Shown here piece after piece: positions 916 through 18,485 of a DNA stretch of 64,000 nucleotides (its first letter is position 1; each line of letters opens with the position of its first letter). The stretch is taken from the NCBI GenBank assembly GCA_021824345.1, contig JAKAKW010000002.1, positions 22,552-86,551 of the forward strand. The letters are read 5' to 3'. The stretch comes from a bacterium (GTDB lineage: Bacteria > Patescibacteriota > Minisyncoccia > Phycocordibacterales > UBA9973). A program made the translations under genes and the position numbers. The notes beneath the pieces were generated by a model that did no database searches, was not told where the DNA came from, and saw only the letters and a list, made by a program, of their open reading frames with translations.

Positions 916-928
916 TTTTCTAGTTTAC

Positions 929-1372
929 TCATTCATCCCTTAGAAAATCTTCAATATTATTTAATGTGTTTCTTTCTGTATTTAATAAATCCCTTCCCCA
1001 AACTCTTAAAACTTTCCATCCCTCTCTCCGTAATTTTGCCCTGTTTCTTTTGTCTCGCGCAATATTGCCCTCTATCTTTTCCCGCCAATACTTCTTCGGC
1101 AACCTGTTCTTTTCTTTTGCAAAATTCCTTCCGTGCCAGAAATCTCCGTCTATGAATATGGCTATCTTCTTGCGGGGCAGGGCGATATCAGGGGTTCCAG
1201 GGGCTTTTTTGTAATGCTTTTGGAAATAAATCTTCCTTTTCCTGAGCTCCTTGAATGCTATAAGCTCCGGCCTTGTGTTTTTAGAGCGTATTTTCGACAT
1301 TATTTCGCTCCGCTTCTTTTTTGTGAATACGTCCATCGTTTTTCTGTCTTGCCAATGGCTATTGCCTTGCAT
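929..1372 (-). CDS. vsr: very short patch repair (Vsr) endonuclease
   Basis: 147 aa. Carries the Vsr hallmark FIDGDFWHG plus RSKNTRPE and LRREGWKVLRVW motifs. Transcribed divergently from a C5-MTase. Confidence 0.85.
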   Translation of the reverse strand: MQGNSHWQDRKTMDVFTKKKRSEIMSKIRSKNTRPELIAFKELRKRKIYFQKHYKKAPGTPDIALPRKKIAIFIDGDFWHGRNFAKEKNRLPKKYWREKIEGNIARDKRNRAKLRREGWKVLRVWGRDLLNTERNTLNNIEDFLRDE

Positions 1373-1386
1373 TTCGGTTTTTGTTC

Positions 1387-1407
1387 GGTATAATAGGATT
1401 ATATACC
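1387..1407. promoter_or_regulatory. imperfect palindrome GGTATAATAGGATTATATACC whose two halves each contain a TATAAT-like -10 box for the divergent vsr and MTase promoters; candidate operator for the LexA-like domain
   Basis: Read directly from the 55-bp divergent intergenic region. TATAAT at 1389-1394 on the plus strand and ATTATA at 1398-1403 (TATAAT on the minus strand). ATG of the MTase at 1427. Confidence 0.3.
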
Positions 1408-1426
1408 TAATATTTTTTATCGCAAT

Positions 1427-3010
1427 ATGGAAACGTTAACAAAAAAGCAGAAGCAGGTTCTTGATTTCATAAACGCATACAGGGCGGAGAACGGCATTTC
1501 GCCCACGATCGAGGAAATAAGAAAAGGCCTGAAGCTGAAGGCGGTTTCTACCGTGCACGAGCACGTGAATGCCTTGAAGGAGAAAGGATACATATCCGGC
1601 GAGGAAAATTCTGCAAGAAGCCTTGTTCCTAAAAAGGCGATAAAGACGATAGTTGAAATCCCCATAGTGGGAAGAATAGCCGCGGGCGACCCTATTGAGG
1701 CTATTGAAGACTTTCAGGACACTGTTTCCATATCCGATCCTTCAATAAAAAGCCACAAAGATTATTACGCCTTGAAAGTGGCAGGCGATAGCATGATAGA
1801 AGAGGGAATATTCGACGGAGATATAGTGGTGATAAAAAAGCAGTCTTCGGCGGAAAACGGGCAGACGGTTGTTGCTATCATTGATGATGAAAAAGCCACC
1901 TTGAAGAAGCTATACAGGGAAAAAGACCGATTCAGGCTGCAGCCGGCAAATTCAAGGATGAAGCCTCTTTTTAGGACGGAAGTAGAGGTAAGGGGAGTTG
2001 TGGCGCAAATAATCAGAAACTTGGCTAATGCGCAAAATACCGCAGAGGAGAAAAAGGTGACAACAAGCAAATTCAGGACAATTGATTTATTCGCGGGGAT
2101 AGGAGGAATAAGGATAGGGTTCGAGAAGGCAGGGTTTAATACCGTCTTTGCAAACGATTTCGATGAACAGTGCAAGAAAACCTATGATTTGAATTTTCCT
2201 ACTTCTAAATTGGTGGTGGAAGACATAAGAAAACTAGGAATAGAGGATCTACCTGATTTTGATTTTCTCTTGGGCGGGTTTCCTTGCCAGGCCTTTTCCA
2301 TAGCGGGGTATAGGCAGGGCTTCAAGGATGAAAAGGGAAGAGGAAACTTGTTTTTTGATATTGCCAGGATAATTGAAGCGCGGAAGCCTGAAGGGTTCCT
2401 GTTGGAAAACGTTAAGAATCTTAAAAGCCACGACAATGGCAAGACTTTCAGAGTGATAGAAAAAACCTTGAAAGAATTGGGATATCACATACAAACAAAA
2501 GTTTTGAATACCATGGACTACGGCAATGTTCCGCAGAATAGGGAAAGGATATACATAGTCGGGTTCAAGGATAAAAATCGCGCGGATAGGTTTTCCTTCC
2601 CCGAGCCCGTAAAGCTTAGGAGGAAAGTCACCCATTTATTGGATAAGAAAGTTCCAGAAAAATATTACTATAACGGCAAGCCTCTTTATGAAAAGCTCAA
2701 GCATTTTGTAAAAGAAGAGGGAAAAGTATATCAGTGGAGGCGCCAGTATGTGAGAGAAAATAAGAGCGGAGTATGTCCGACCTTGACGGCGAATATGGGA
2801 ATGGGGGGGCATAATGTGCCCATTATCAAAGACAAGAAAGGAATACGGAAGCTTACTCCCCGGGAGTGCGCCCGCATACAGGGATTCTCCGATGATTACA
2901 AGCTTCCCGAAATTGCGGATTCCGCGCTATATAAGCAATTAGGGAATTCTGTCAGCGTGCCTGTTATAGAAGCAGTAGCCAAGCAGATGAAGAAAGTTCT
3001 AAACGGCTAA
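1427..3010 (+). CDS. fusion protein: full-length LexA (winged-helix domain, Ala-Gly cleavage site, S24 Ser/Lys dyad) fused to a C5-cytosine DNA methyltransferase
   Basis: N-terminal 205 aa aligns with LexA: VGRIAAGDP (cleavage site), GDSM (Ser), KKLYR (Lys), VVAQIIRN. C-terminal domain carries MTase motifs I (DLFAGIGG), IV (GFPCQAFS), VI (ENVKNL) and X (QLGNSVSVPV). Confidence 0.85.
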   Translation: METLTKKQKQVLDFINAYRAENGISPTIEEIRKGLKLKAVSTVHEHVNALKEKGYISGEENSARSLVPKKAIKTIVEIPIVGRIAAGDPIEAIEDFQDTVSISDPSIKSHKDYYALKVAGDSMIEEGIFDGDIVVIKKQSSAENGQTVVAIIDDEKATLKKLYREKDRFRLQPANSRMKPLFRTEVEVRGVVAQIIRNLANAQNTAEEKKVTTSKFRTIDLFAGIGGIRIGFEKAGFNTVFANDFDEQCKKTYDLNFPTSKLVVEDIRKLGIEDLPDFDFLLGGFPCQAFSIAGYRQGFKDEKGRGNLFFDIARIIEARKPEGFLLENVKNLKSHDNGKTFRVIEKTLKELGYHIQTKVLNTMDYGNVPQNRERIYIVGFKDKNRADRFSFPEPVKLRRKVTHLLDKKVPEKYYYNGKPLYEKLKHFVKEEGKVYQWRRQYVRENKSGVCPTLTANMGMGGHNVPIIKDKKGIRKLTPRECARIQGFSDDYKLPEIADSALYKQLGNSVSVPVIEAVAKQMKKVLNG

Positions 3011-3571
3011 GCCTTTCATTTTTTTGAACAGGTTTTCCATATCCTTTAAATCATCCCAATATACGAACATGTTATCATTATTAAAAGACATGCCTTTAAA
3101 GTTTTTACCCGCGGCTAGTTCCTGAAAATCATTCCTAGAGGCCCAGCCCCTTCTTTCAACTCGTATGCCGTTAAGAGCCGGAAAATCAGAAAATATTTCT
3201 TCTCCCCGGCCTCCCAAGCTCCTGAAAAATCTCTGCCCGGTGCTGGATTTTTTCCAATGCACTTTATAGCCTATGAATAATCCCGCTTGCCTGTCTCCCT
3301 CGAATTCATTTTTTGAAATCAGCATGAAATACTGCACGTCTTTTACCTGTATCTTGGTTTTTGGGGCAAAATAAGAACCTCCGGAAAACTTTATTTTCTT
3401 TACATCCTGCCCCTCATCTGTGTTTGAGGTTCCGATATAAAAATCCCTGTTCAGTTCTATACCTATACCATGTTTCTCGCAGTCCATCTTAAAGGCCACT
3501 TCATTTAAAAGGCCTTTAGTAATATCCATCATGGCCTCTATATCATATCTTGTTTTTCCGCTTGAATACAA
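2999..3571 (-). CDS. hypothetical protein
   Basis: 190-aa ORF with no recognisable motifs. Overlaps the MTase 3' end by 12 nt on the opposite strand. Confidence 0.35.
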   Translation of the reverse strand: MYSSGKTRYDIEAMMDITKGLLNEVAFKMDCEKHGIGIELNRDFYIGTSNTDEGQDVKKIKFSGGSYFAPKTKIQVKDVQYFMLISKNEFEGDRQAGLFIGYKVHWKKSSTGQRFFRSLGGRGEEIFSDFPALNGIRVERRGWASRNDFQELAAGKNFKGMSFNNDNMFVYWDDLKDMENLFKKMKGLAV

Positions 3572-3618
3572 TGTAATAAAATTTTCATTTACCGCTTTCT
3601 TTGCCCAATTAAATTCCC

Positions 3619-4164
3619 CTATAATGCTTCCAGGGGGATTAAAATAGAGTTATCAAGGACAGATTGGCAATATTCCGAAATTTTTTTAAAACTAGTAAAT
3701 CCGTTTTTAATCGATCCGTTTCCCTGTGCGAGATTCTCAATCTTATTTGAGGAATTGGCTGATCCGCCTGCTACTCTCCTAAATTGGCCCAAGGATACGC
3801 TTTCATATCCGTAAGGTCCAAGTATTTCATTTACAATTTCAAATACTCTAGGCAGGGCGTTTTCTTCTTCAAAGAAAATGTTTGTGTCTTCCTTTATGCC
3901 CCGGTTTGCTATGTTATCAGGGATTTTTATTTTCTCATTATTCATTTGTCCCCGGGCCAGGAGATTATTATAACTATCCTGTCGGACGGGGAATATATGG
4001 GGAGTTTGCATAACAAGCTCCTTTTTATCAGGGAAATGAGATAGGATAGGGGCGCTTTTAATTATTGTTTTAATTATTGCGGTTCCAAGGCATTGAACCA
4101 TTACGATACCTTGACATATAGCATAAAATGCTGTATTATATTTATAATTTCTGATCGTTGACAA
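3619..4164 (-). CDS. hypothetical protein (doubtful; TTG start; overlaps small-peptide copy 1 on the opposite strand)
   Basis: 181-aa ORF. Its reading frame through the repeat element is not conserved in the other three copies (stop codon in copy 2). Confidence 0.2.
   Translation of the reverse strand: MSTIRNYKYNTAFYAICQGIVMVQCLGTAIIKTIIKSAPILSHFPDKKELVMQTPHIFPVRQDSYNNLLARGQMNNEKIKIPDNIANRGIKEDTNIFFEEENALPRVFEIVNEILGPYGYESVSLGQFRRVAGGSANSSNKIENLAQGNGSIKNGFTSFKKISEYCQSVLDNSILIPLEAL
3946..4044 (+). CDS. small ORF family member 1 (32 aa: LSPGQEIIITILSDGEYMGSLHNKLLFIREMR)
   Basis: One of four paralogous copies. Substitutions between copies fall mainly at third codon positions in this frame. TTG start. 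Confidence 0.45.
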   Translation: MSPGQEIIITILSDGEYMGSLHNKLLFIREMR

Positions 4165-4264
4165 TCATCTCTTGTCTCGATTTGTTGATTAGTTTTTGTC
4201 TCCTTCTTAAAGGAGGTAGAAACTAATTAACAAATCTAAACAATCAATATAGGAGAAAATCTAA

Positions 4265-5056
4265 ATGGAAAAAAATATCAAAGTGTTCGCTTTAGGAAGC
4301 GAAAATGATACTGTATTACTTGCCTTGAAACAGGCACTTTCTATAACCGGCATAACTTTCATTAAGGACGTTGTAGAATCCGATCTAGTGGTTTCAACAT
4401 CAATTCACGACGTTGGCAGGATATATAATCCTGAGAAAAACTACGCTGTTGTCTCGATGGGGGAAAAGAAAACTGCTACATTACCTCGTAATGTAGAAAT
4501 TTTCAACGGCCCGCCTAATCTTCTTGAAATTCTGAAATATATTTCTTCAATTGAGGTCTCTCAAGAAGAAGAAATACAAAAAGCAGAATTACTTCCTGAT
4601 GCAAAAAAGATTCTTGTTGTTGACGATACTCTTAGGCATCGAAATAGCGCAAAGGATCTATTAAAAGGTCATATTTTGACAATAGTTGATGGATACGAAC
4701 TGGCGCTTGACGCTCTTTCGTCGCAGAAGTTTGATGTCGTTCTTACAGATCTTAAACTTCCCATGAGCTCTTCCATACTTTCCCCGAACGTATTTAAATG
4801 GGGTGAGCTGGAAAATTATGGAGTGTTTATCATGTTAGAGGCTGCAAGGGTTGGTGTAAAGCACATAGCAATTGTCACTGACCTAAATCATCATCTTGAT
4901 CCTTTTTCCGCCGCTTTTGATCACTTTTCTCAGTATTTGTTTAATATTAACGGCTCGGATGCAGTCATGATTCATGCCAACTTGGTTGATAACAAAAAAG
5001 GAGAGACGGTAAAAGATTGGGGAGAAGCACTATCACGGGTTATGTCTGCTGAATAA
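4265..5056 (+). CDS. REC (CheY-like receiver) domain protein, no recognised output domain
   Basis: KKILVVDD...FDVVLTDLKLP receiver motifs in the C-terminal two thirds. Good AGGAG ribosome-binding site. Confidence 0.5.
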   Translation: MEKNIKVFALGSENDTVLLALKQALSITGITFIKDVVESDLVVSTSIHDVGRIYNPEKNYAVVSMGEKKTATLPRNVEIFNGPPNLLEILKYISSIEVSQEEEIQKAELLPDAKKILVVDDTLRHRNSAKDLLKGHILTIVDGYELALDALSSQKFDVVLTDLKLPMSSSILSPNVFKWGELENYGVFIMLEAARVGVKHIAIVTDLNHHLDPFSAAFDHFSQYLFNINGSDAVMIHANLVDNKKGETVKDWGEALSRVMSAE

Positions 5057-5093
5057 AGTGACTTGTTAAATAACTATTTTAGGAGGAACAGAC

Positions 5094-6221
5094 GTGAAAA
5101 GACAACTCAAAAAATTCCAACTAGAAGGTTTTCCATCCAAGAAAGAAATCATTAAAGCAGAAAAAGAAATCTTTCCATTAGTCTTATCTCCTTCCGTGAG
5201 TGCGCTCTGTAATCTGAGGTGTATATACTGTTATACTCGTGCTGGAAAAAAATTACCCGGAGAATTAGATTTTGCAGATCATGCGAAAGCAATCAATGAA
5301 TTTACTGAGCTTAATAGGCACAACAAATACATGATTATTGCAATGATGGGGGAAACTTTTTTGGATAAAAGTCTTTATAATGTAAAGGGAAAAAATATTG
5401 TTGATCCTATTACAAAAAAGAACTTTGTATCCAAGTTTCCCATTATAGATTATGCAAATAGATGCGGTATCAAGGTGGTCTTTTTCACAAACACTACCGT
5501 AATAAATAAAAAGATAGCCGAAGAACTAAAGGGTAAAAATGTTTCCATCATAGGTAAACTTAACACACTCAATCCTAAATTACAGGAAGAAATGACGGGC
5601 GGAAAAGGATTCTTTGTTGAAGAAGAATGGGTAGACTACGAATATTTGGTTGGAGGCAAGAAAAAAAAGATAAAAATCCCGAAAGGTCTTAATGCTTTGA
5701 TTGAAGCAGGATTTAACAAAATCAACGAAAGAGGCAATACAAGTTTAGGAGTTGATATAATCCTTACTGAAAAAAATTACAAGGATGTTCCTAAGGTTGT
5801 AGAATTTTGTCTAGAGAATTTTATTCATCCTGTTTTAGATACAATGCTTCCTATAGGATCAGCGGCAGAAAATTATTTTGAGCTGAAACTAAAAACGGAA
5901 ACAAACAGATGGCTATACAAAAGATTGCTTCAGCTGCTAGGTTCAAATTTTGCCGAGGCGGAATTTACCGGCAATCCATGTTCAACTTTTCGCGCCGGCA
6001 TTGCCTATGATAATTTCGGTAATGTGCGAATGTGTTGCGGAGGTGAAGCTGACGGTATAGGCAATATCAAAAGGGATAGCCTTAAGGATATTTATCAAAA
6101 AATGATTAGATACAAGGGGAATTTCCTGTCTAATTTAAGAGAAAATAAACTTGGCAATGACGTATTTCCTGAATGTCCAGTAGCAAATTATTTTCGAAAA
6201 GAATTAGAGAAAAGTATCTAA
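5094..6221 (+). CDS. radical SAM enzyme with a C-terminal Cys-rich SPASM/twitch-like domain
   Basis: CNLRCIYCY is a CxxxCxxC radical SAM motif near the N-terminus. The C-terminal segment NPCS...MCCGG...ECP carries auxiliary-cluster cysteines. Confidence 0.75.
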   Translation: MKRQLKKFQLEGFPSKKEIIKAEKEIFPLVLSPSVSALCNLRCIYCYTRAGKKLPGELDFADHAKAINEFTELNRHNKYMIIAMMGETFLDKSLYNVKGKNIVDPITKKNFVSKFPIIDYANRCGIKVVFFTNTTVINKKIAEELKGKNVSIIGKLNTLNPKLQEEMTGGKGFFVEEEWVDYEYLVGGKKKKIKIPKGLNALIEAGFNKINERGNTSLGVDIILTEKNYKDVPKVVEFCLENFIHPVLDTMLPIGSAAENYFELKLKTETNRWLYKRLLQLLGSNFAEAEFTGNPCSTFRAGIAYDNFGNVRMCCGGEADGIGNIKRDSLKDIYQKMIRYKGNFLSNLRENKLGNDVFPECPVANYFRKELEKSI

Positions 6222-6239
6222 TTATATTAACTTCTTGAA

Positions 6240-6270
6240 GGCCGGACTGGTAAACAGTCTGGCCTTTTAT
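6240..6270 (+). terminator. rho-independent terminator hairpin GGCCGGACTG-gtaaa-CAGTCTGGCC followed by TTTT
   Basis: Seen directly downstream of the radical SAM gene stop codon. Confidence 0.6.
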
Positions 6271-6343
6271 ATATCTTATCTTGGAGGCGGTTCGATTCCT
6301 GTCTGGTCAAAACCCCTTGCTATTGTTAGCTTAGAGAAAATCC

Positions 6344-6448
6344 GTGTCCCCGGCTCAGGAGATTATTATAACCATCCTATCGGATGGGGAATATATGGGA
6401 AGTTTGTATAATAAACTGTTGTTAATAAAGGAAATGACAGCAATCTGA
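6344..6448 (+). CDS. small ORF family member 2 (34 aa: VSPAQEIIITILSDGEYMGSLYNKLLLIKEMTAI)
   Basis: GTG start preceded by the conserved upstream leader ttgttagcttagagaaaatcc shared with copy 3. Confidence 0.45.
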   Translation: MSPAQEIIITILSDGEYMGSLYNKLLLIKEMTAI

Positions 6449-6494
6449 AAAAGATTAGTCTAAGGCTGTAAGATAGCTGTATAATAATAGAGAG

Positions 6495-7277
6495 ATGAAA
6501 ACAGCAATGCCACAAAAAGTAAAAAAAGTACTTGAAGAACTTTCAAATTTTTTTCAAGAAGTTCTAGGGAGAAATTTGGTTGGAATATATTTACACGGCT
6601 CATTAGCTATGGGGTGTTTTAATCCGGCTTCAAGCGATATAGATATTATTGCAGTTATAAAAGGCAAATTATCTTTACAGGCGAAGAATAAATTGCAGGC
6701 CGGAATTAGATTATCATCAAAAAAGTATCCACAGAACGAGTTTGAGATAAGCGTAGTGAAACAAGATGTATTGCGTAAGTTTAAATATCCTACGCCTTTT
6801 GAATTTCATTTTTCAAAATCATCTAAAAATGTAAGTGCCAAAAACAATACGGGTTACGATAATGACTTGGTTGCCCATTTTGCCATGGTTAAAAAGAGAG
6901 GACTCTGTTTATATGGAAAACCAATTAGGTCAATTTTTCCCAACATACCCAAAAAGTATTTTCTTAAGTCTATAGCGCAGGATGCCAAATGGAGTGCGGA
7001 AAATGTGCGCAAGGCAAAAGAGAAAGGAAAATGTCCTGTACCGACTTATGCCGTATTGAACTTTTGCCGGGCCATTGCTTTCATCAGAAGTAATGAGTTC
7101 TTTTCAAAGAAGGAAGGCGGTGAATGGGGTCTAAAGCATCTACCGAAGAAATATGCGCCAATAATAAAAGAGGCGTTAAAAAAATACAGGAAAAGAAATT
7201 CCGCAAAGACGGTTGATTCCGAACTATTGAAACAGTTTAGCGAATATTCTTGGAATGTAATAAAGAAATATTACTAG
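6495..7277 (+). CDS. AadA/ANT(3'')(9)-like nucleotidyltransferase (NTase fold plus DUF4111-like C-terminal domain)
   Basis: GIYLHGSLAMGCFNPASSDIDIIAV fits the GS...DxD NTase motif. C-terminal LPKKYAPIIKEALKKY resembles the AadA C-terminus. About 260 aa, as in AadA. Confidence 0.6.
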   Translation: MKTAMPQKVKKVLEELSNFFQEVLGRNLVGIYLHGSLAMGCFNPASSDIDIIAVIKGKLSLQAKNKLQAGIRLSSKKYPQNEFEISVVKQDVLRKFKYPTPFEFHFSKSSKNVSAKNNTGYDNDLVAHFAMVKKRGLCLYGKPIRSIFPNIPKKYFLKSIAQDAKWSAENVRKAKEKGKCPVPTYAVLNFCRAIAFIRSNEFFSKKEGGEWGLKHLPKKYAPIIKEALKKYRKRNSAKTVDSELLKQFSEYSWNVIKKYY

Positions 7278-7330
7278 CTCGATCCCGGTCTGGTCAGAAT
7301 ACCTTGCCATTGTTAGCTTAGAGAAAATCC

Positions 7331-7435
7331 GTGTCCCGGCGGGAGGAGTTTATTATAACCATCCTTTCGGATGGGGAATATATGGGGAACTTATATAATA
7401 AATTGTTGTTTATAAATTCCCTGAAAAATTCTTAA
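7331..7435 (+). CDS. small ORF family member 3 (34 aa: VSRREEFIITILSDGEYMGNLYNKLLFINSLKNS)
   Basis: GTG start, same upstream leader as copy 2. Confidence 0.45.
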   Translation: MSRREEFIITILSDGEYMGNLYNKLLFINSLKNS

Positions 7436-7452
7436 ATGGTTTTTAGTAAAAA

Positions 7453-8091
7453 CTATTTGCCTAATTCTTGAGCTGATTTAGCAACTTCATCGTTGAACAT
7501 TCCTTGAATACCTGCTACGTATTTGTTCGCTTCTTCACCCGTAACCTCGGTTGATTCACCTGTGGCAAAATTTACCGCCTTAACAACATACCCGTTATTT
7601 TCGGCAGAAATGTCGTAAATAAATACATTCTCCGGGTCAAGGTCAGCCTCGACTTTCGCATTTTCTTGTAATTTGTCCAATGGTGTGAATGCGTCCATTT
7701 CATTAAAAGCTGATTTCTCACCTTTTATACCCGAGGTTTTATTCAAAACCATTCTGTCAGCTGAGCCATCAAGATTGTTATCGATAAGTAGTCGCCCTCC
7801 ATTCTTTTCTTCACTCATCATCCATTTTGCCTTTCCATTTTCATCATAACCCACGATTAATTTCTGACCATCGGGCGATACCCATTTCTCTACTTTTGTA
7901 TTTCCAATATTGCCTTTCTGGCCTTTCTCTGATATTTGCAAAACAATCTTTTGCTCATTCTGTTTAGCCAGAGCTTTTAGGTCATCTATGTTTTTTCCTC
8001 CTTTTTCTAAAGCTTGGGCAAACCCGGGAAGATTCATAAGTACGGACAATGCTACTACTTTTGATACAGTCTTTATCTTTTCAAAATTCAT
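7453..8091 (-). CDS. secreted hypothetical protein (signal peptide)
   Basis: N-terminal hydrophobic segment ALSVLMNLPGFAQA. Confidence 0.45.
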   Translation of the reverse strand: MNFEKIKTVSKVVALSVLMNLPGFAQALEKGGKNIDDLKALAKQNEQKIVLQISEKGQKGNIGNTKVEKWVSPDGQKLIVGYDENGKAKWMMSEEKNGGRLLIDNNLDGSADRMVLNKTSGIKGEKSAFNEMDAFTPLDKLQENAKVEADLDPENVFIYDISAENNGYVVKAVNFATGESTEVTGEEANKYVAGIQGMFNDEVAKSAQELGK

Positions 8092-8252
8092 AATATTTGC
8101 TAGTTATTCTTAAATTAAGATATGGTGATTGCGACGTTTTATTTATACAATTTTTTTGTAAATGATACAAGATAGCCAAGTGACTAGGACACTTCTAGTT
8201 ATAAGTACCATCTCCTAACGACAAAAGAGCCTTAGTTTATAAGGACGAAAAT

Positions 8253-8351
8253 TTGTCCGCGGTCCAGGAGATTATTATAACCATTCTTTCGGATGGGGAA
8301 TATATGGGGAGCTTGTATAACAAGCTTCTTTTTATTAAGGAAATGAGATAA
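8253..8351 (+). CDS. small ORF family member 4 (32 aa: LSAVQEIIITILSDGEYMGSLYNKLLFIKEMR)
   Basis: TTG start with AGGA 8 nt upstream. Confidence 0.45.
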   Translation: MSAVQEIIITILSDGEYMGSLYNKLLFIKEMR

Positions 8352-8379
8352 AATAAAATATTTTAATTTCCAAGAACCT

Positions 8380-9468
8380 TCATACTGCTTGTTGGCTACC
8401 TTTTATTTTTTCAAACAAAGACCGTAGAAAGTTTAAATACATTTCTAATAATTTTTTATGAATATATTGAAAATCTTCTTTCAAATAAGATTCTGATAAT
8501 TTATTCTCCTTTAATACTTTTGAAAGTTTTTCCTCTGACTGAGGATGTGCGGCAATCCTTATTACTATATTATTCAAGGTCCTTAGCCCGTATAAATCTT
8601 CTCCCACCTTTATTTTTTTGGATAGAAGGTATAGATGCAATAAATTTATACTTCCAGAAAGTTCATTTAACCCATTTATTTCTTTTCTTGCCTGATCTAA
8701 AGAAAATCCATGTTTTGAGAGATCCTCAGCATTTAGATCCTGGATGAACACTCTCAAATCCATGCAACGCCCCATTAATTCTGCTAATTTAGTCGGGCCC
8801 TCAATCTGCGAAATTATTCGTTCAGAGTCTGGAAATAAAGTAAATTTAAATCGATTATCTTCCACAGCTAACAAATTTATTTTTTTTCTTAATTCTGAAA
8901 TCTCTTTTACAATTTCAGTATTGTTGTATTTTTTTTCCTGTTCTTCTTCTTTCTCAATTTCTTTTCTCTTTATATTTTTTGAATTATTCTCTATAAGTTC
9001 TTGCGCACGATCAGAACCTTCCTTTGAAATTTTCTCTTTAATTTTTTCTATATTAGAGCCTTTCCATTTTAAAATTTCTTTTACGAATATAATCTCTGAG
9101 CTTTTACCCTTTATACTTTCGAAATTTTTTGAATAATATTCAAGCTGGTCTTTTGGATTTTCTCTAAGAAGATATTGTAACGATAGAACTCTTATGTCGC
9201 GTCTTACATTTTCGTTTTCAAATATTTCCTTCAAAAGAAAAACAATTTTGTTTAAGGATTTTGTTCTTAACATATATCCTAACAATGTGGTAATAATAGA
9301 TTCATTGGGGTCTGACGAATTCAATTCTTTTAGAGTCAAAGTGAATACTCTATCTGAAATGAAGTGTTCTTCCAAATTGTTTTCATTTAGAAACTCCACA
9401 GCATAAGAAAAATTAATGTCCCTTGTCTCTTGTTTTGAAAGGATTTCGCGGAAAGCCAAGCAGAGCAA
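8380..9468 (-). CDS. hypothetical protein, Lys/Glu-rich coiled-coil
   Basis: 362-aa ORF, AT-rich, no recognised motifs. Confidence 0.35.
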   Translation of the reverse strand: MLCLAFREILSKQETRDINFSYAVEFLNENNLEEHFISDRVFTLTLKELNSSDPNESIITTLLGYMLRTKSLNKIVFLLKEIFENENVRRDIRVLSLQYLLRENPKDQLEYYSKNFESIKGKSSEIIFVKEILKWKGSNIEKIKEKISKEGSDRAQELIENNSKNIKRKEIEKEEEQEKKYNNTEIVKEISELRKKINLLAVEDNRFKFTLFPDSERIISQIEGPTKLAELMGRCMDLRVFIQDLNAEDLSKHGFSLDQARKEINGLNELSGSINLLHLYLLSKKIKVGEDLYGLRTLNNIVIRIAAHPQSEEKLSKVLKENKLSESYLKEDFQYIHKKLLEMYLNFLRSLFEKIKGSQQAV

Positions 9469-9623
9469 TCAAAGTACGAGGTCAGCTGCGGCATCGCAAC
9501 CCCCAACCTGACTCAAGCGGAGAAGAAAGTTGAGAATTCTAGCCAATAAAATTGTAATTACCTACGCAATTTCAAAAAGGGAATACCAATCTAATAATAT
9601 TGATTCAAGACAATCACAAAACT

Positions 9624-11255
9624 TTATTCCATGATTTGGCCATCCCCGTCGTCAAGTTTGAATAAAAATTTCTGATTTTTTTTATCGAATGTAACGACCG
9701 GAAGGAGAACTTCCTCGAAGGTTGTTTTTTTATCTGCCATGAGTTCCCCGCTCAAAATTTTTGGTTTTATATCCTTGTAAAGAAATTCGATCATCTTTTT
9801 TCTTTCCTTACCTACTATACTTACTTCAGTCCCGTTAACCTTAAATCCAATGATATACAAATATACCTTCAAGACTGAAGGGAAAAATCCTTTTACATTA
9901 GACATAAAATCACCATTTATTTTTTCCCAGATTAGACCTATGATGGTTTCTGATAGTTTTTCAAATCCAGAAGTAAGGGAATGGAGTGGAATCGTCTCTC
10001 CCACAGTTTCCATTGCTAATATTCTTATTTTCCCATTGTATTCTTCCTTTACCTGGGCTAGGGATTCAATAAAACCACAAACAGTTTTTGCATAGGCAAA
10101 ATTTATGCTTGAACGGAATTCGTTGTCTTTTTTAACTTCCGTTTCATATATAGAGGCCTGTTTCCTCTTTAATGCTTCTTTATATTCTCGTATATAAGTA
10201 TGACCAAGAAAAAAACTTATTGTCTGGAGCCGAGATACAGCTTCTTTATGTTTGTTTTTTTCTTTACTTGAAAAAGCAAGTGACTGCGAGTAATCATTTA
10301 GTTTATCCAGTCCATTACAGATCTCTCTTCTCATTTCTACTGGACAATTATTTTCCCAATATCCTTTGATAGCATATTCTAAAGATTTTAAATAAACTGC
10401 CAAATATTTTTCATGTAGTCTGTCAAATTTACAGAAACTATAATCATTTCCGAATACACAAAAATTGTCTAGAAAATATGGTTCTGAAAATATTGCCTCA
10501 AAGGCATTAAGGGCTAGGGAAGTACCCCTATAATCAAGTTGACTATAAAAATATGAACTCTCTTCTCTAAACAATAATTCGATAATTCTGTCTAGTCCTA
10601 ATTGAGTATGGGCAGATGTGATTCTATATTTCTTGAATGTAGCTAGCAAATATAAAATAAAATCTATCCTCCCGGTTGCAATATATCTTGCTACTCTCTC
10701 TTCGCTTAAAATTACAGTTGTGACGGCATTGGCATAAATAGCATATTTTTCCTCATCGGAAAGGATATAATCCTTATCTCTTTGAAAAGGTATTGAGCTG
10801 ATACCAGCCAGTGCCTTCGTTATATTTTCAAGGTTGGCTCCCAGAATATCAATACAGACATCGATGTTATCAATTTTAGGTTTAGTTATTTCTCGTAGAA
10901 TAATGTTATAAAACTTTTCTGCACGCCTCTTGTTGAATAGCCCCTTCTTTCTTTTTCCGAAAAGTAGCAAACTTAATGGGGCAAAAATAAAACATAAGTA
11001 TCCTAAGAACTGCCAAAGAAATGTATTGTTCAAAAAAGAAAGGGGTAAACTAAAGAATTTTTGTTGGATAGTGATAGCAATGGCTATAGATACAAGCCCC
11101 CCAACACCCATGTACCATATTAAGTTTCTTTGCCATGAATCTCTAATTTTCAAAACAATGTCCCAAGATTTGTCTTTGAGTTGAAATACGGCAAAAATTA
11201 AACCGAAGGCGGCTACGGCCTCACCTAAAGAAAAATGTATTATGTTATCTGCCAT
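9624..11255 (-). CDS. membrane protein (N-terminal TM helices plus large cytoplasmic domain), last gene of the type I R-M operon
   Basis: Hydrophobic N-terminal 100 aa. Starts 43 bp downstream of the hsdR stop on the same strand. Confidence 0.45.
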   Translation of the reverse strand: MADNIIHFSLGEAVAAFGLIFAVFQLKDKSWDIVLKIRDSWQRNLIWYMGVGGLVSIAIAITIQQKFFSLPLSFLNNTFLWQFLGYLCFIFAPLSLLLFGKRKKGLFNKRRAEKFYNIILREITKPKIDNIDVCIDILGANLENITKALAGISSIPFQRDKDYILSDEEKYAIYANAVTTVILSEERVARYIATGRIDFILYLLATFKKYRITSAHTQLGLDRIIELLFREESSYFYSQLDYRGTSLALNAFEAIFSEPYFLDNFCVFGNDYSFCKFDRLHEKYLAVYLKSLEYAIKGYWENNCPVEMRREICNGLDKLNDYSQSLAFSSKEKNKHKEAVSRLQTISFFLGHTYIREYKEALKRKQASIYETEVKKDNEFRSSINFAYAKTVCGFIESLAQVKEEYNGKIRILAMETVGETIPLHSLTSGFEKLSETIIGLIWEKINGDFMSNVKGFFPSVLKVYLYIIGFKVNGTEVSIVGKERKKMIEFLYKDIKPKILSGELMADKKTTFEEVLLPVVTFDKKNQKFLFKLDDGDGQIME

Positions 11256-11298
11256 TTCTTATAATAAACTCAACTAGAAATATCCTAATAACGAAATG

Positions 11299-13755
11299 TT
11301 AATTCACTAAAGCATATACCTTTTCTTTTAAACCCAGCACGAACCCGAAAAGCCCTCCGGGGTACTTGGCCTGGATGGCTTCCTTTTTTGCGTTCATATT
11401 AGGCAATAGGAATGCTTGCGACGATAGATTTTCCTCACCACTGGTTTTGTACTTCTCCATAATGTCACGAATGGCTTCGCCGATTTCCTTGCCATATTGG
11501 TCAAGTGTTTGAGTATTTGCGCGCATGAATTGTTTAACTCGGTCCTCACGAGTCAGAAGGGGAGCGTCAAATGCTATATGCGCTATAACGTCGAAAGCGT
11601 CACTATCCTCTAAGTTCTCTATGGATTTGATTAGTGGAATGTTCACGTGTTTAGTTTCTAGGTCGGTTATGAGTAGTTCGCGTTTCTCTGGGTCAAGCCA
11701 TATTTTACGGAGTTCATCAGTGGTGTGTACCATTTCGGTTATCCTTTCACCGGAATACTTGCGATACTCTGCTTTTGAGAGCTTGATGCCGTCGAATTCT
11801 ATCTCAACCTCCTCATCAATACTCACCTCAATGCCTTTGACTATAATTTTCTTAGGAGTACCCTTGAGCGGCTTCAGGCGGAATTCATAGGGTGTTTCTG
11901 CTTCTGATTCATGCGGTTCAAGACGCTTGCTCAAATTTTTGTAATCGGCGTGCTCAATTTGTACAGACACTTCACCATTTGTCGGCAAACCGAATATCCT
12001 AAATAGACCGTCGTTGTCGGTTTTACCGATCTTCTCCCAGCGCCCGAGCTTAACTTTCACCACAGCGCTTGCCACATGCTCTTCTGTCTTGTTATTGACC
12101 ACTACACCTGTGATTAGTTTATCAAAAGGCGGTATCGGTTCTTCTGGGGTCGTAGGAGGCACTGGCGGTTGAGGAGCTACGTCCCACTCGTCCAGGAGCC
12201 GGGTAGCGTTTGTAAAATCAATAACGCGGAAGAAACCCTTACCTTCAGAAAGACGAGAACCTCGTCCTAATATCTGTTTAAACAGCACCCGTGAAGCTAT
12301 AGGACGCATAAAGACGATATTTTGTACGTGGGGGATGTCTACCCCAGTAGAAAGCAAATCTACTGTTGTTGCAACGACTGGTAAGGTACGTTCTTTGTCT
12401 CGAAAGGCAGTTAAGTCATCTTTGTCCTCAGCTACAATACGGGTAGCGTAGTCCTCGCGTCCCTTTAGTTCGTTTAATTTATCTTGTACCGCCTGTGCGT
12501 GTGCCATATCAACACAGAAAACGATAGTTTTTCCATAAGGGTTTGTTTCGTCAATCAGCTCAACCACCTTTTTTGCCAGCAGACCTATTTGCTCGGGAAT
12601 AGTGACGGCGCGTTCGTATTCTGATGGTTCGTAGAAATCTTTAATATCTTCTGGTTCAACTTCATCGTCGTATATAATTTCTTCTGCTGCGGCGACGGAG
12701 AGCCCTTTACGGTACAGATTCGTAGTGACCTTGTAGATTTTGTACGGTACGAGATAGCCGTCTTCAATAGCTTGCCCTAGGGAATACTGGAATACCGGTT
12801 CACCGAAGTATTCGTATACGTCAATATTGTCTTCCCGGCGTGGAGTTGCTGTCATGCCGAAGTGTACAGCAGAAGTGAAGTGATCAAGAATTTCTCCCCA
12901 GTCACCAAATCGCGAGCGGTGACATTCATCAATGACAATCAGATCAAAAAAGTCAGCTGGTATCTGCTTGTAGAGATCATTCGCGAAGAGCGTCTGGTAT
13001 GTTGAGAAATAAACGTCCCGGTTGCGATTGAAGTCACCACCTTCTATCTTTGCGCGGCCTTCGCCAAATGGTTCAAAATCTCGGCTATAGGCATCATCGC
13101 GCAGAATTATACGGTCACAAAGAAAAAGGATACGATGCATCGTTTTTGATTTCATCAATTTCCAAACAATTTGAAAGGCAGTGAATGTTTTACCAGTGCC
13201 GGTGGCCATTGTAAGAAGTGTTGTACGATTTCCTTTGATAATGTTTCTAACTACTGCATTGATCGCGGTTTCTTGATATGAACGCGGGCGCTTGGTACCA
13301 CTAATGTGAAGCGGATATTCGAGTGCAGACAACTTAGCATTTTCTAACCCTTTCCATTCTATGTATGCTTTATACATATCTTCAGGCGATAGGAAAGAAG
13401 AAACTGACTCTGGCGCTTTATTTGTGCGCCGATCATATAGGTATGAGGACTTGCCGTTAGATATATAGGCAAATGGTACGTCAAGACGCTCAGCATAATT
13501 TTGCACCTGTTTAATATGTTTCATCAAGTCCTCGTCCTCTGCTTTTGCTTCAAGCACTGCTACTGTAACTTGGTTGAACTGGACCACATAATCAGCAAAG
13601 AGCGAAGTCGGAAGACGTTTATATTCTTCTCCTTCAACGTAAAAACGATCGTCAGAAATAGGGTAGTTGCGAAGAATATATTCCTCTTTCCACCCTGCCT
13701 CGTGTATTTTGGGATCTATTATTTTGACTCTTGTGTCGTCCTCTGAAAAGGTCAT
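11299..13755 (-). CDS. hsdR: type I restriction enzyme R subunit (HsdR) with a C-terminal extension
   Basis: N-terminal PD-(D/E)xK (ADYVV...LEAKA). Helicase motifs TGTGKT and DECH. C-terminal region has a transthyretin/CarbopepD-reg-like segment (TDNDGLFRIFGLPTNGEVSVQ) and an EcoEI_R_C-like tail. Confidence 0.85.
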   Translation of the reverse strand: MTFSEDDTRVKIIDPKIHEAGWKEEYILRNYPISDDRFYVEGEEYKRLPTSLFADYVVQFNQVTVAVLEAKAEDEDLMKHIKQVQNYAERLDVPFAYISNGKSSYLYDRRTNKAPESVSSFLSPEDMYKAYIEWKGLENAKLSALEYPLHISGTKRPRSYQETAINAVVRNIIKGNRTTLLTMATGTGKTFTAFQIVWKLMKSKTMHRILFLCDRIILRDDAYSRDFEPFGEGRAKIEGGDFNRNRDVYFSTYQTLFANDLYKQIPADFFDLIVIDECHRSRFGDWGEILDHFTSAVHFGMTATPRREDNIDVYEYFGEPVFQYSLGQAIEDGYLVPYKIYKVTTNLYRKGLSVAAAEEIIYDDEVEPEDIKDFYEPSEYERAVTIPEQIGLLAKKVVELIDETNPYGKTIVFCVDMAHAQAVQDKLNELKGREDYATRIVAEDKDDLTAFRDKERTLPVVATTVDLLSTGVDIPHVQNIVFMRPIASRVLFKQILGRGSRLSEGKGFFRVIDFTNATRLLDEWDVAPQPPVPPTTPEEPIPPFDKLITGVVVNNKTEEHVASAVVKVKLGRWEKIGKTDNDGLFRIFGLPTNGEVSVQIEHADYKNLSKRLEPHESEAETPYEFRLKPLKGTPKKIIVKGIEVSIDEEVEIEFDGIKLSKAEYRKYSGERITEMVHTTDELRKIWLDPEKRELLITDLETKHVNIPLIKSIENLEDSDAFDVIAHIAFDAPLLTREDRVKQFMRANTQTLDQYGKEIGEAIRDIMEKYKTSGEENLSSQAFLLPNMNAKKEAIQAKYPGGLFGFVLGLKEKVYALVN

Positions 13756-13775
13756 ATTTTTATAAATTGCTATTT

Positions 13776-14456: not shown

Positions 14457-14467
14457 GAATAAATTTA

Positions 14468-16735: not shown

Positions 16736-16851
16736 GCTGGGTATGATAGTCCAAGATAAATATTTTGTCAAGTTTTGGCAAGTATTGTAATACACTTGCC
16801 ATTTTATGACAACTTTATATTTGACATGTTCCCGTCTTTTTATTTTCTAGA

Positions 16852-18281: not shown

Positions 18282-18412
18282 ATGTTTGTTTGGCGTTCGG
18301 CGGAGCGTTTTATCCTGGAAAATTCTTTTTGGCCTCTCGACCTGTTTACTGCGGGAACTGGTCTAGGAAACAGCCCTATTTTCCAAAATACCCTTATTTA
18401 GCTTATATAATG

Positions 18413-18485
18413 TCCGCCCACTCGGGATCGAACCGAGGACCTTCTCCTTAAAAGGGAGCTGCTCTACCATCTGAGCTATGGGCGG
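18413..18485 (-). tRNA. tRNA-Lys (anticodon UUU)
   Basis: Cloverleaf folded by hand from the reverse complement: acceptor CCGCCCA/TGGGCGG, anticodon loop CUUUUAA, T-arm CTCGG-TTCGATC-CCGAG. No encoded CCA. Confidence 0.8.

Follow-up and report, generated by a model that had tools for sequence, protein, structure and literature searches.

How is a stretch of DNA built in which copies of one short repeat alternate with single genes, and what are the repeats themselves? In the window (the whole stretch of DNA analysed, 64,000 nt), an earlier note had described four such repeats, all pointing the same way and separating gene units, and had likened them to a chromosomal integron cassette array. 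The repeats are indeed four direct copies, all in register (3894-4031, 6292-6429, 7279-7416 and 8201-8338); a 43-nt core pattern (≤3 mismatches) matches exactly four times, always on the plus strand, and never in 100 shuffles. The order of units and intervening genes was also given correctly. The array does not start at 3946, however, as had been supposed: seven further units lie left of the window on contig DAICBP010000002.1 (loci L001 and L005), the first, a degenerate one, 7.07 kb away, so that at least 11 co-oriented units cross a low-GC island. Nor is the repeat an open reading frame (ORF) alone. The full conserved unit of ~160 nt consists of an upstream arm of 55-60 nt, which is of two types (class A and class B), and an ORF for a micro-protein of 31-40 aa. 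Identity among the units of one genome is 85-95% over ~100-160 nt. The units of the window contain the following elements.

3946-4044, plus strand: unit 1, micro-protein ORF, TTG start, LSPGQEIIITILSDGEYMGSLHNKLLFIREMR
3947-3953 and 3965-3973, plus strand: unit 1, core TGTCCCC and invariant box TTATTATAA
6289-6343, plus strand: unit 2, class A upstream arm, with T-loop-like box GGTTCGATTCCTGTCTGGTC and small hairpin GCTATTGTTAGC, then the core
6344-6448, plus strand: unit 2, micro-protein ORF, GTG start, 34 aa
6345-6351 and 6363-6371, plus strand: unit 2, core TGTCCCC and box TTATTATAA
7276-7330, plus strand: unit 3, class A upstream arm
7331-7435, plus strand: unit 3, micro-protein ORF, GTG start, 34 aa, with box TTATTATAA at 7350-7358
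8198-8252, plus strand: unit 4, class B upstream arm, starting at GTTATAAGTACCATCTCC, then hairpin AGCCTTA-GTTTA-TAAGGAC
8253-8351, plus strand: unit 4, micro-protein ORF, TTG start, 32 aa
8254-8260, 8272-8280 and 8306-8330, plus strand: unit 4, core TGTCCGC, box TTATTATAA and terminator-like hairpin

Unit 1 has no upstream arm because the start of a minus-strand gene (3619-3942) abuts it. The arm of unit 3, whose ORF is the most divergent copy, begins one base ahead of the final base of the stop codon (7277) of the preceding nucleotidyltransferase gene. No unit was found outside the tRNA-anchored island, either elsewhere in the 64-kb window or in other 20-kb loci.

The island is 25 kb of foreign DNA adjoining a tRNA-Lys gene, and the units split it into small gene packets. 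They span the low-GC region exactly, from the degenerate first unit to the tRNA-Lys gene at 18412; GC is ~0.30-0.44 inside versus ~0.45-0.54 outside, and the composition is foreign throughout that interval. There are at least 10-11 segments of 0.4-4.7 kb, often holding a single gene, and cargo genes occur on both strands, the majority antisense to the unit. In the window it comprises:

94-3942, both strands: large cassette ending at unit 1, five genes, for a 273-aa protein (minus), Vsr (minus), a LexA-S24-Dcm fusion (plus), a 190-aa protein (minus) and a ~107-aa protein (minus)
4265-6221, plus strand: between units 1 and 2, REC-like gene (4265-5056) and radical SAM gene (5094-6221)
6495-7277, plus strand: between units 2 and 3, AadA_C/NTP_transf_2 (DUF4111-type) nucleotidyltransferase
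7453-8091, minus strand: between units 3 and 4, 212-aa protein with a signal-like N-terminus
8380-16795, minus strand: tRNA-proximal segment, 362-aa protein, 543-aa protein, HsdR, DUF4145 protein and HsdM-HsdS fusion

The first of these cassettes starts at a unit that precedes position 1 of the window by 727 nt. The REC-like protein matches Response_reg weakly (E=2.6e-4, under the Pfam cutoff), and a terminator (6237-6267) follows the radical SAM gene. The 212-aa protein has no family match, and 17 nt separate its stop codon from where the unit 3 ORF ends. The 362-aa protein (8380-9468) is K/E-rich; HsdR and the HsdM-HsdS fusion make up a type I restriction-modification system. A BrnT/BrnA toxin-antitoxin pair is also among the array cassettes. 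The nucleotidyltransferase, previously called aadA-like, does have the AadA_C and NTP_transf_2 domains, but it reaches only 81 bits for ANT(9), where the cutoff is 340, and falls under every NCBIfam ANT cutoff; judged by sequence it is a distant AadA_C/DUF4111 relative only, and a resistance role is not implied.

Comparison of gene content across genomes, which the earlier note had called for, shows that it differs completely among arrays. Other genomes carry arrays of 3-10 units with wholly different cargo (10 units in L039, 6 in L040 and 3 in L037). In L014 the cargo is Fic, LD-carboxypeptidase plus IS110, 2-hydroxyacid dehydrogenase, and Maf plus HAD plus NUDIX. The same type I restriction module follows a unit both in the window and in L036 (HsdR 75% identical).

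The micro-protein belongs to an unannotated, strongly conserved family present in many uncultured CPR bacteria. Its ORF is under strong purifying selection: within the genome the ORF frame has a pN/pS of 0.075, compared with >1.6 for either alternative frame, and overall it is 0.35, with the other frames >1, which bears out the coding-type conservation noticed earlier. Serines toggle between TCN and AGY codons. A profile search gave 42 database clusters, all of them short ORFs with the motif at the C-terminal end, and no longer conserved protein was among them. The micro-protein is a real translated product, and it is probably a single amphipathic helix. We would guess, with low confidence, that it is carried by the cassette to assist or regulate either recombination or expression at the junction. 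The suggestion that these peptide genes are addiction or immunity modules found no support. The TTATTATAA box within the ORF does not vary in its DNA letters. Codon 8 reads ATT in 35/35 copies and codon 9 reads ATA in 34/35, and the remaining Ile codons are free to vary. The box may be either a recombinase-binding site or a -10 element, the latter because the minus strand reads TATAAT, facing across the core.

The earlier reading did not include the tRNA-Lys gene that anchors the island; every unit begins with a copy of that gene's 3' end. Three features lie at this end of the island.

17334-18281, minus strand: Xer-like tyrosine recombinase, 315 aa, candidate enzyme for insertion at tRNA-Lys
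18282-18417, plus strand: arm between the recombinase gene and the tRNA end, ending in core TGTCCGC (18411-18417)
18412-18485, minus strand: tRNA-Lys(UUU), the island anchor, with its 3' end facing the array

tRNA-Lys(UUU) lies on the opposite strand, right of the last unit, in 13 loci (the window, L008, L009, L010, L013, L014, L015, L018, L022, L028, L035, L037 and L041), separated from that unit by 0.28 to 10 kb of unrelated cargo; in L038 a divergent subfamily is placed likewise beside tRNA-Asn. The match between unit start and tRNA end is 5-8 nt long, and in adjacent unit/tRNA pairs the cores agree in 13/13, with TGTCC in both partners at 8 loci and TGTGC in both at 5. The unit 4 core of the window, TGTCCGC, recurs letter for letter in the 7 nt of the tRNA-Lys end, and unit 11892 of L014 has TTGTCCTC in common with its tRNA. 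Codon 2, when it encodes Ser, is TCC in 24/24.

The homology extends beyond the core. At three loci the left arm at the tRNA end is homologous to the left arm of the unit, in a test that left the core out: L015 (41/42 identical, z=18), L037 (z=10 and 15) and L014 (z=10). This similarity gives way to divergence directly after the core. The tRNA-side arm of the window is homologous to its L010 counterpart (blocks CGACCTGTTT, GGGAA.TGGTC.A, CAAAATA and TGTCCGC) and has CTGGTCTAGGAAAC and TTAGCTTA in common with class A arms; its overall similarity to class A and B arms is not significant (z≤2.2), and the common core is only 7 nt. An old junction in L010 (~1320-1405) consists of an arm, then TTGTCCGCTCGG, which is identical in 12/12 positions to the start of the tRNA end of that locus, and then a truncated, reverse-complement tRNA-Lys fragment.

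It had been observed that no IntI-type integrase is adjacent. The recombinase present is indeed not IntI, but an Xer-like tyrosine recombinase does exist 9 kb right of the four-unit array, beside the tRNA-Lys gene. Its best matches are XerA and XerC, and it is 76% identical to a counterpart in the same tRNA-proximal position of L010. This recombinase occurs in only 2 of ~19 loci.

Taken together, these features make it fairly probable that the units are the junctions of a segmented island, which arose through successive site-specific insertions at the tRNA-Lys(UUU) 3' end. The attachment region of each packet would have three parts: an arm in which a T-loop-like box accompanies a terminator-like hairpin; a short core, reverse complementary to the last tRNA bases and reading TGTCCSC or TGTGCSC; and, ahead of the cargo, a second arm consisting of the micro-protein ORF. 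If this core recombined with the tRNA end, the arm would come to lie beside the tRNA and the ORF at the opposite side of the new segment. Each further insertion would then displace its predecessors outward, leaving co-oriented units with the newest segment next to the tRNA; in the window, this would be the segment with the recombinase and the type I restriction system. The Xer-like protein may be the enzyme responsible, and cassettes that carry no recombinase may have been moved in trans.

Several observations count against insertion at the tRNA end. The T-loop-like box (or true tRNA-Lys 3' fragment) of the arms runs in the opposite orientation to that of the intact tRNA, which a simple integration model does not predict, and a pure recombination site would have no need of a conserved protein. 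The weak arm similarity in the window and its common core of only 7 nt also tell against it, as do the absence of any observed excised circle or empty site and of cassette polymorphism among near-identical genomes. The recombinase is found in few loci, is of a different type in L041, where an element with terS and a large serine recombinase lies between unit and tRNA-Lys, and was not seen in the long arrays (L014, L039, L040 and L037) within the DNA examined. In addition, 7 kb of housekeeping genes separate the unit of L004 from its tRNA-Lys gene, a start codon is missing from some units, and no unit was found on viral contigs.

Some of these points would suit a platform for homologous recombination, a reading that we consider unlikely. 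The unit would then be a multi-copy small gene with its regulatory flank, RecA-dependent exchange between units of ~100-160 bp would allow cassettes to be gained, lost or duplicated (for example, after DNA uptake) with no dedicated site-specific recombinase, and the tRNA would be an ordinary island hotspot. The high identity of units within one genome, the duplicated NUDIX-plus-unit segment of L014, the lack of a nearby recombinase in most arrays, and the differing tRNA-side recombinases (tyrosine in the window and L010, serine in L041) are all consistent with such exchange. However, it leaves unexplained why the first 5-8 nt of the unit copy the tRNA 3' end and co-vary with it, why the arm homology stops exactly at the core, and why units are strictly co-oriented relative to the tRNA in 13 loci.

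It is improbable that the unit is instead a miniature selfish element, or else a small gene of the toxin or addiction type, that has spread among resident genes rather than bounding cassettes. Class B units do have terminal inverted repeats (GTTATAAGTACCATCTCC in the unit 4 arm is an imperfect inverted copy of GGAGATTATTATAAC within the ORF), a 190-nt insertion with inverted ends adjoins a unit in L010, and the ORF is under selection. Yet the units all point in one direction and are confined to the tRNA-anchored island, the whole interval from first unit to tRNA is foreign in composition, the peptide falls short of the hydrophobicity expected of a membrane toxin, and no recurrent antitoxin partner accompanies it.

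The integron interpretation, in which an IntI-type integrase would recombine the units as attC sites of a chromosomal integron or CALIN, is already contradicted and is very improbable. There are likenesses to sedentary chromosomal integrons (e.g. Vibrio VCR): long arrays of co-oriented, highly similar ~100-160 nt repeats, mostly 1-2-gene cassettes of tightly packed, diverse accessory genes (toxin-antitoxin pairs and nucleotidyltransferases included), content that varies between genomes, and one tyrosine recombinase at one end of the island. To this extent the cassette-array description stands, but the integron part of it does not. The doubt already voiced over classical attC sites was justified, since R''/R' boxes are absent (RYYYAAC-N35-125-GTTRRRY, 0 found vs 3.65 expected in the 15.7-kb array) and there is no conserved imperfect-palindrome fold; single-strand folding is unremarkable (z -0.9 to -2.3), and internal hairpins are not kept in other genomes (48-56% paired). 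With the integron-integrase model (cutoff 265) the recombinase reaches 112 bits, its match to IntI4 is broken into two stretches, and it does not diverge from an attI site; a tRNA end, rather than attI, serves as the insertion point. Unlike integron cassettes, the cargo is mostly antisense to the repeat, and the repeat itself is translated and selected as protein.

RiPP loci commonly hold multiple precursor copies, and the radical SAM gene between units 1 and 2 is weakly similar to SPASM peptide maturases, but the idea that it matures the repeated ORFs as precursor peptides is already disfavoured and hardly credible, given that such a gene is in only 1/10 cassettes and in none of L014, L039, L040, L037 or the single-copy loci (genes scanned or precomputed Pfam hits), that the peptide has no Cys and no leader/core organisation, and that NCBIfam scores reach 41 bits at best, where the cutoffs are 300-650.

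Among known systems, islands of the dusA and trmE/yicC types integrate into the end of a protein gene and bring a replacement end. As there, the attachment region here overlaps coding sequence, and therefore the repeats show coding-type conservation; the ORF, however, is a complete gene in each segment, not a fragment of a larger host gene. In arrays of CIMEs, IMEs and ICEs (e.g. ICESt1-type, IME_Sag2603_tRNAlys), insertion occurs at a tRNA 3' end, often that of tRNA-Lys, and a newcomer enters the att site beside the target, pushing older elements outward; decayed elements that have lost the integrase but kept their att sites persist as cis-mobilizable units (PMC5704250). The restriction of the window's recombinase to the tRNA-proximal segment resembles this arrangement. 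In contrast, the segments here are far smaller and far more numerous, the repeat is a ~160-nt unit encoding a conserved micro-protein rather than a partial tRNA copy, conjugation and mobilization genes are absent, and the hosts are CPR/Patescibacteria. Tycheposon islands of Prochlorococcus likewise lie beside tRNA genes and are built by successive integrations; their elements carry a tyrosine or large serine recombinase, some elements are satellite-like with terS, partial att copies lie between cargo elements, and degenerated remnants are scattered in the island (10.1101/2020.12.28.424599). The L041 element is similar, whereas tycheposon separators are partial tRNAs, not arm-core-micro-protein units with only 5-8 nt matching the tRNA end, and the host phylum differs. 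The best reading, then, is that this array is integron-like in its working but lies outside the integron family, with its closest relatives in the accretion of islands at tRNA genes, as in CIMEs and tycheposons.

The repeats of this region mark a tRNA-anchored island, probably built by accretion, with a conserved micro-protein encoded at every boundary. Each boundary is a conserved block of about 160 nt (the unit), which consists of an upstream arm and a short open reading frame (ORF); a short core lies at the start of the ORF. In the window, four units are present as in-register direct repeats, and a 43-nt repeat pattern, with up to three mismatches allowed, has four matches, all on the plus strand, compared with none in 100 shuffles. 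Thus, the four same-direction repeats between single genes that the earlier note had described are real. Its gene order is also correct: unit 1, a weak REC-like gene with a radical SAM gene, unit 2, an AadA_C/NTP_transf_2 nucleotidyltransferase, unit 3, a 212-aa minus-strand gene with a signal-like N-terminus, unit 4, and a 362-aa K/E-rich minus-strand gene. The array extends well beyond what was described there: seven further units lie left of the window (loci L001 and L005, contig DAICBP010000002.1 of a Minisyncoccia-type (CPR) metagenome-assembled genome, which the window matches), for a total of at least 11, all on one strand.

Main features of the island in the window
3894-4031, plus strand: unit 1
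6292-6429, plus strand: unit 2
6495-7277: nucleotidyltransferase gene
7279-7416, plus strand: unit 3
8201-8338, plus strand: unit 4
17334-18281, minus strand: Xer-like tyrosine recombinase gene, adjoining the tRNA gene
18412-18485, opposite strand to the units: tRNA-Lys(UUU), right boundary of the island, 3' end towards it

GC content is about 0.30-0.44 between the first unit and position 18300 and about 0.45-0.54 on either flank; the steps coincide with the first unit and with the tRNA. The segments separated by the units, from left to right, are as follows.

Cassettes of the array in the window genome
Cassette 1 (leftmost): 234-aa gene and HAD hydrolase
Cassette 2: BrnT/BrnA
Cassette 3: 234-aa gene
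Cassette 4: 149-aa gene and NUDIX
Cassette 5: empty 0.4-kb segment
Cassette 6: dCMP deaminase and short-chain dehydrogenase
Cassette 7: six genes, including Vsr and a LexA-Dcm fusion
Cassette 8: REC-like gene and radical SAM
Cassette 9: nucleotidyltransferase
Cassette 10: 212-aa gene
Segment 11 (rightmost): 10 kb, type I restriction-modification and tyrosine recombinase

The empty segment of about 0.4 kb lies between consecutive units, some 2470-2060 nt before window position 1 (L005 reverse complement 7437-7790). No ORF is called in it, and it opens with a terminator-like hairpin; it could represent a decayed cassette or else non-coding cargo.

The ORF of the window units encodes 32-34 aa from a TTG or GTG start, with the peptide consensus MSPxQEIIITILSDGEYMGSLYNKLLFIKEM. 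Among the 11 copies of the window genome, pS is 0.50 and pN 0.037 in the ORF frame (pN/pS 0.075), compared with pN/pS values of 1.6 and 2.8 in the other two frames, which bears out the coding-type conservation proposed earlier. Across 35 copies from more than 20 genomes, pN/pS is 0.35 in frame versus 1.05 and 1.35 in the other frames. Serine codons switch between TCN and AGY, and leucine codons between CTN and TTR. This substitution pattern indicates that the ORF is under selection at the level of the protein. A profile made from the peptides of the four window units was run against 1.84 billion proteins and retrieved 42 clusters, all of short ORFs (32-143 aa). In these the motif is C-terminal and the N-terminal extensions are unrelated; thus, the real gene encodes about 31-40 aa. 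Gene callers mostly overlook or mis-extend it. Neither Pfam nor NCBIfam contains a family that matches the micro-protein, and the 42 clusters are without either model. AlphaFold2 predicts a single helix (residues 3-32, pLDDT 94 in the best of five models, from a shallow alignment). This prediction, together with the lack of Pfam support at E up to 10, led us to reject a ribbon-helix-helix half-domain like that of CopG.

Upstream of the ORF, two classes of arm are present in the window genome, and distant genomes carry comparable variants (loci L014, L039, L040 and L028).

Arm classes in the window genome
Class A: GGTTCGATTCCGGTCTGGTC..., a small hairpin, then a GTG start
Class B: GTTATAAGTACCATCTCC..., a hairpin, then a TTG start

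A class A arm follows plus-strand cargo in 4/4 cases and a class B arm follows minus-strand cargo in 3/4 (Fisher p ~0.07), which fits arms that belong to the left-hand cassette but is only suggestive. Within the ORF, codon 2 is TCC in all 24 copies that encode serine there, codon 8 is ATT in 35/35 copies and codon 9 is ATA in 34/35, whereas all three isoleucine codons are used freely at codons 11 and 28. Judged by this codon choice, two short stretches, the boxes TGTCC and TTATTATAA, are constrained as DNA rather than as protein. The latter reads TATAAT on the minus strand. In a promoter scan the number of sites was that expected by chance, and no site lay within the arms.

Two local hairpins are paired at 94% and 89% among the window-genome copies, and at 56% and 48%, near slid controls, in other genomes. 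A hairpin followed by a T-run is located inside the ORF at codons 19-27 (8306-8330 in unit 4 of the window, and the corresponding place in each of the ten remaining units of this genome). It is kept in 11/11 window-genome copies through synonymous, partly compensatory changes (AGC/AAG versus AGT/AAA) and is 89% paired, compared with 43-65% for slid controls and 48% in other genomes; convergent cargo genes may use it as a lineage-specific terminator. As for non-coding RNA, Rfam searches of the units gave no match, whether gathering thresholds or a limit of E=5 were applied.

Related loci were collected from a metagenome scan (L008-L028), from one genome (L004) and from contigs that encode the database homologues (L035-L041). 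In 13 loci (the window and 12 others) a tRNA-Lys(UUU) gene lies on the opposite strand to the right of the last unit.

Distance from the last unit to tRNA-Lys
0.28 kb: L028
About 0.8 kb: L018 and L035
1.2-1.9 kb: L009, L013, L014, L015 and L037
7.8-10 kb: L010, L008, L041 and the window

The connection between unit and tRNA is seen at the level of single bases. The core, 5-8 nt long, is the reverse complement of the last bases of the tRNA and co-varies with it in 13/13 adjacent pairs: TGTCC is found in unit and tRNA alike in eight loci, and TGTGC in five. With a TGTGC core, codon 2 becomes Cys instead of Ser. Window unit 4 and the tRNA end have TGTCCGC in common, and the L014 unit at 11892 shares TTGTCCTC with its tRNA. 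In addition, the left-hand arms of the tRNA end and of the units are homologous, and their similarity stops exactly at the core. TRNA-side and unit-side arms are identical at 41/42 positions in L015 (z=18), and they are similar in L037 (z=10 and 15) and L014 (z=10). The tRNA-side arm of the window, compared with the class A and B arms, gives no significant similarity (z of 2.2 or less); located between the recombinase gene and the tRNA, it is homologous to the equivalent arm of L010. L010 also contains a fossil junction, in which an arm is followed by TTGTCCGCTCGG and then by a truncated reverse-complement fragment of tRNA-Lys. A classical attR, that is, the tRNA-Lys 3' end repeated elsewhere in the island, was rejected, as no match of 15 nt or more was found.

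Some arms contain a T-loop-like box. In L010, L013, L014 and L039 this is a true 3' fragment of tRNA-Lys, 24-27 nt long, followed by a terminator hairpin. As a 3' end of a window tRNA, the class A box is a poor candidate, with tRNA-Arg(GCG) the closest at 5 mismatches in 20. Nor is the unit a diverged reverse-complement tRNA-Lys: beyond the core, local alignment gave z below 1.3 in 16/17 tests and 3.3 in one. L010 (1400-1545) and L013 (1190-1335) have, upstream of the unit, a conserved element about 170 nt long, which ends in an inverted tRNA-Lys 3' fragment. The two copies differ in a compensatory manner (GGGCGC...GCGCCC versus GGATGC...GCATCC) and have no Rfam match; the element may be a structured RNA or an attachment-arm structure.

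The sole exception to the unit/tRNA-Lys arrangement is L004. Here (9797-12287) a single unit has its ATG start within a long perfect hairpin; a 711-aa reverse-transcriptase-like ORF comes next, on the opposite strand, and a LOOT RNA (Rfam RF03000, 74.9 bits) is found 4 kb further on at 14106-14224. The block from tRNA-Lys to S20 lies between the two copies of a 120-nt direct repeat (2669-2789 and 9797-9918). A divergent micro-protein subfamily (PEAIISVLSDRNYMENLY...) in L038 (10001-18009) is positioned beside tRNA-Asn(GTT) rather than tRNA-Lys; its unit starts with GCTCC, which matches the end of that tRNA-Asn, and the interval contains a helicase gene flanked by IS3-family copies.

Between arrays, the cargo is unrelated. 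Multiple units are present in L039 (10), L040 (6), L014 (5) and L037 (3), and the gene content between them varies, as it does in integron cassette arrays.

Cargo of other arrays
L039: includes Maf, EamA, methyltransferase, HSP20, kinase/acetyltransferase/HAD, P-type ATPase, NUDIX
L040: includes TrmB, cupin, nucleoside hydrolase, decarboxylase, cyclodipeptide synthase
L014: Fic / LD-carboxypeptidase and IS110 / 2-hydroxyacid dehydrogenase / Maf, HAD and NUDIX

No cassette polymorphism was seen among the near-identical genomes compared. The IS110-family transposase of L014 (10620-11675) sits inside one of the cassettes there. The sole overlap with the window is a type I restriction module that follows a unit in L036 (11377-16430; HsdR 75% and HsdMS 61% identical). 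The L036 module has different small genes and no recombinase; that of the window (11299-16795) comprises an HsdM-HsdS fusion, a DUF4145/PD-T7-4-like gene and an HsdR with a CarboxypepD_reg-like insert. Further to the left, a plus-strand gene at 1427-3010 encodes a 527-aa protein in which a LexA DNA-binding domain is fused to an S24 peptidase and to a C5 cytosine methylase. Its neighbours are a gene for a Vsr mismatch endonuclease (929-1372, minus strand) and an unassigned 190-aa gene (2999-3571, minus strand), and the region 929-3571 could be a damage-responsive methylase or restriction module.

The radical SAM protein (5094-6221), whose partner carries a degenerate receiver domain, has weak matches to SPASM peptide maturases and NirJ (41 bits) and to pVip, the prokaryotic viperin (E=3.5e-6). 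A pairing of RiPP precursor and radical SAM maturase is disfavoured, since radical SAM is confined to a single cassette and was not seen among the genes examined in other arrays; the peptide also has no Cys and no match to an NCBIfam precursor model. The gene called aadA-like in the earlier note does encode an AadA_C/NTP_transf_2 nucleotidyltransferase, but it falls below every cutoff for aminoglycoside nucleotidyltransferases (ANT(9) 81.1 bits, cutoff 340; PRK13746 74.9, cutoff 193; AadA 50.7, cutoff 375). Its closest relatives are CPR proteins annotated as 'DUF4111 domain-containing', with up to 56% identity, and the relatives found in other CPR genomes (L029-L034) have no units nearby.

Recombinases of two families occur. 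The window enzyme has its best matches among XerA (183 bits), XerC (173 bits) and XerD, compared with 111.9 bits on the integron integrase model TIGR02249 (cutoff 265) and 74.7 on PRK15417 (cutoff 435). Against the PDB it matches XerC-like and XerA proteins best, and IntI4 only in two split stretches. The gene is separated from the last unit by 9 kb and points its 3' end at the array, and a 76% identical protein occupies the same tRNA-proximal position in L010 (8428-9321). Among the loci only L010 has such a homologue, other recombinase families having been partly screened in the remaining loci. The second family is the large serine recombinase of L041 (Nomurabacteria), whose gene overlaps the tRNA end with its 3' end. 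There, a satellite-like element (5205-14703) that carries this recombinase gene along with two Dcm methylases and an HNH protein, a small terminase subunit (terS), an AAA_25 protein and replication-like genes lies between the unit and tRNA-Lys.

The simplest and most likely account of these arrays is that packets were inserted site-specifically, one after another, at the 3' end of tRNA-Lys. Each packet would bring an arm, a core and an ORF, and its core would recombine with the tRNA end, so that the arm comes to lie beside the tRNA and the ORF at the opposite end of the inserted segment. Repeated insertion would then generate co-oriented units, and the segment next to the tRNA, which bears the recombinase, would be the newest. 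Growth would thus proceed at the tRNA end, the tRNA-proximal recombinase would be the candidate enzyme, packets could be mobilised in trans, and the micro-protein might take some part. The leftmost unit of the window genome, which has neither core nor start codon, is the most decayed, as is that of L028; this is consistent with serial insertion, as are the tRNA-type core of unit 4 and, only suggestively, the relation of arm class to cargo strand. Several observations are problems for this account. Neither circular forms nor empty sites were seen. Most arrays have no recombinase in the DNA examined, and the recombinases belong to two families. The T-loop-like box or tRNA-Lys fragment of the arms is inverted relative to the intact tRNA, and units without a start codon exist. 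Moreover, a bare recombination site needs no conserved protein. A search for free forms of the element among viral contigs returned no relative.

The main rival is exchange and duplication of segments through homologous recombination between units. A duplication of this kind is seen in L014, where a NUDIX gene and its adjoining unit are present twice (7463-8209 and 14276-15026), the first copy having decayed into two ORF fragments. However, homologous recombination leaves unexplained both the co-variation of the core with the tRNA and the sharp end of the arm homology. A bolder reading, of low probability, is a previously undescribed, integron-like gene-capture platform of CPR/Patescibacteria, in which small, mostly recombinase-less cassettes would enter and leave at the 3' end of tRNA-Lys (tRNA-Asn in one subfamily) through a unit of about 160 nt whose second arm encodes a dedicated recombination or expression micro-protein, with the invariant TATAAT box as an outward promoter or recombinase box. 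The array resembles an integron in its single recombinase, its many co-oriented repeats and its small, diverse cassettes, which include a toxin-antitoxin pair, but it fails the defining attC and IntI tests. On both strands of the 15.7-kb array, no RYYYAAC...GTTRRRY pair is found, versus a mean of 3.65 in 100 shuffles; the units are unremarkable in single-strand DNA folding (z from -0.9 to -2.3), and what is conserved in the units is sequence in a coding pattern, not structure. For these reasons attC is rejected, in agreement with the doubt already expressed in the earlier note. That note's cassette idea was right in spirit, given the co-oriented repeats and variable cargo, but the integron label was wrong. 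Its statement that no IntI-type integrase is adjacent holds insofar as the recombinase is Xer-like, although a tyrosine recombinase is present on the island.

Among known systems, the closest is the accretion in tandem, at tRNA genes, of integrative elements and of decayed derivatives that have lost the integrase (CIMEs; PMC5704250). Also close are the Prochlorococcus tycheposon islands, in which one integration after another at a tRNA gene leaves partial att copies separating the cargo modules (10.1101/2020.12.28.424599). As in CIME-like accretion, the island abuts a tRNA 3' end, is of foreign composition, has cargo that differs among genomes, and has its recombinase near the tRNA (window, L010, L041). 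In contrast to both systems, the segments are smaller and more numerous, the unit encodes a micro-protein under selection, and the host belongs to a different phylum. No description of such arrays in Patescibacteria was found in the literature searched.

CPR bacteria have tiny genomes, and to our knowledge almost nothing is known about how they acquire genes. The locus is a case of recurrent, orderly stacking of accessory and defence genes beside one tRNA gene, in arrays that reach at least 10-11 packets in several lineages, and its boundary marker encodes an unannotated family of micro-proteins. Even if insertion is not the mechanism, it still has to be explained why the micro-protein is so strongly conserved and present in many copies. 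If the units are true recombination sites, they would represent a candidate compact integration system and a case in which a recombination site overlaps a protein gene, and the micro-protein profile together with tRNA-Lys would provide a handle for delimiting mobile cargo in thousands of metagenome-assembled genomes.
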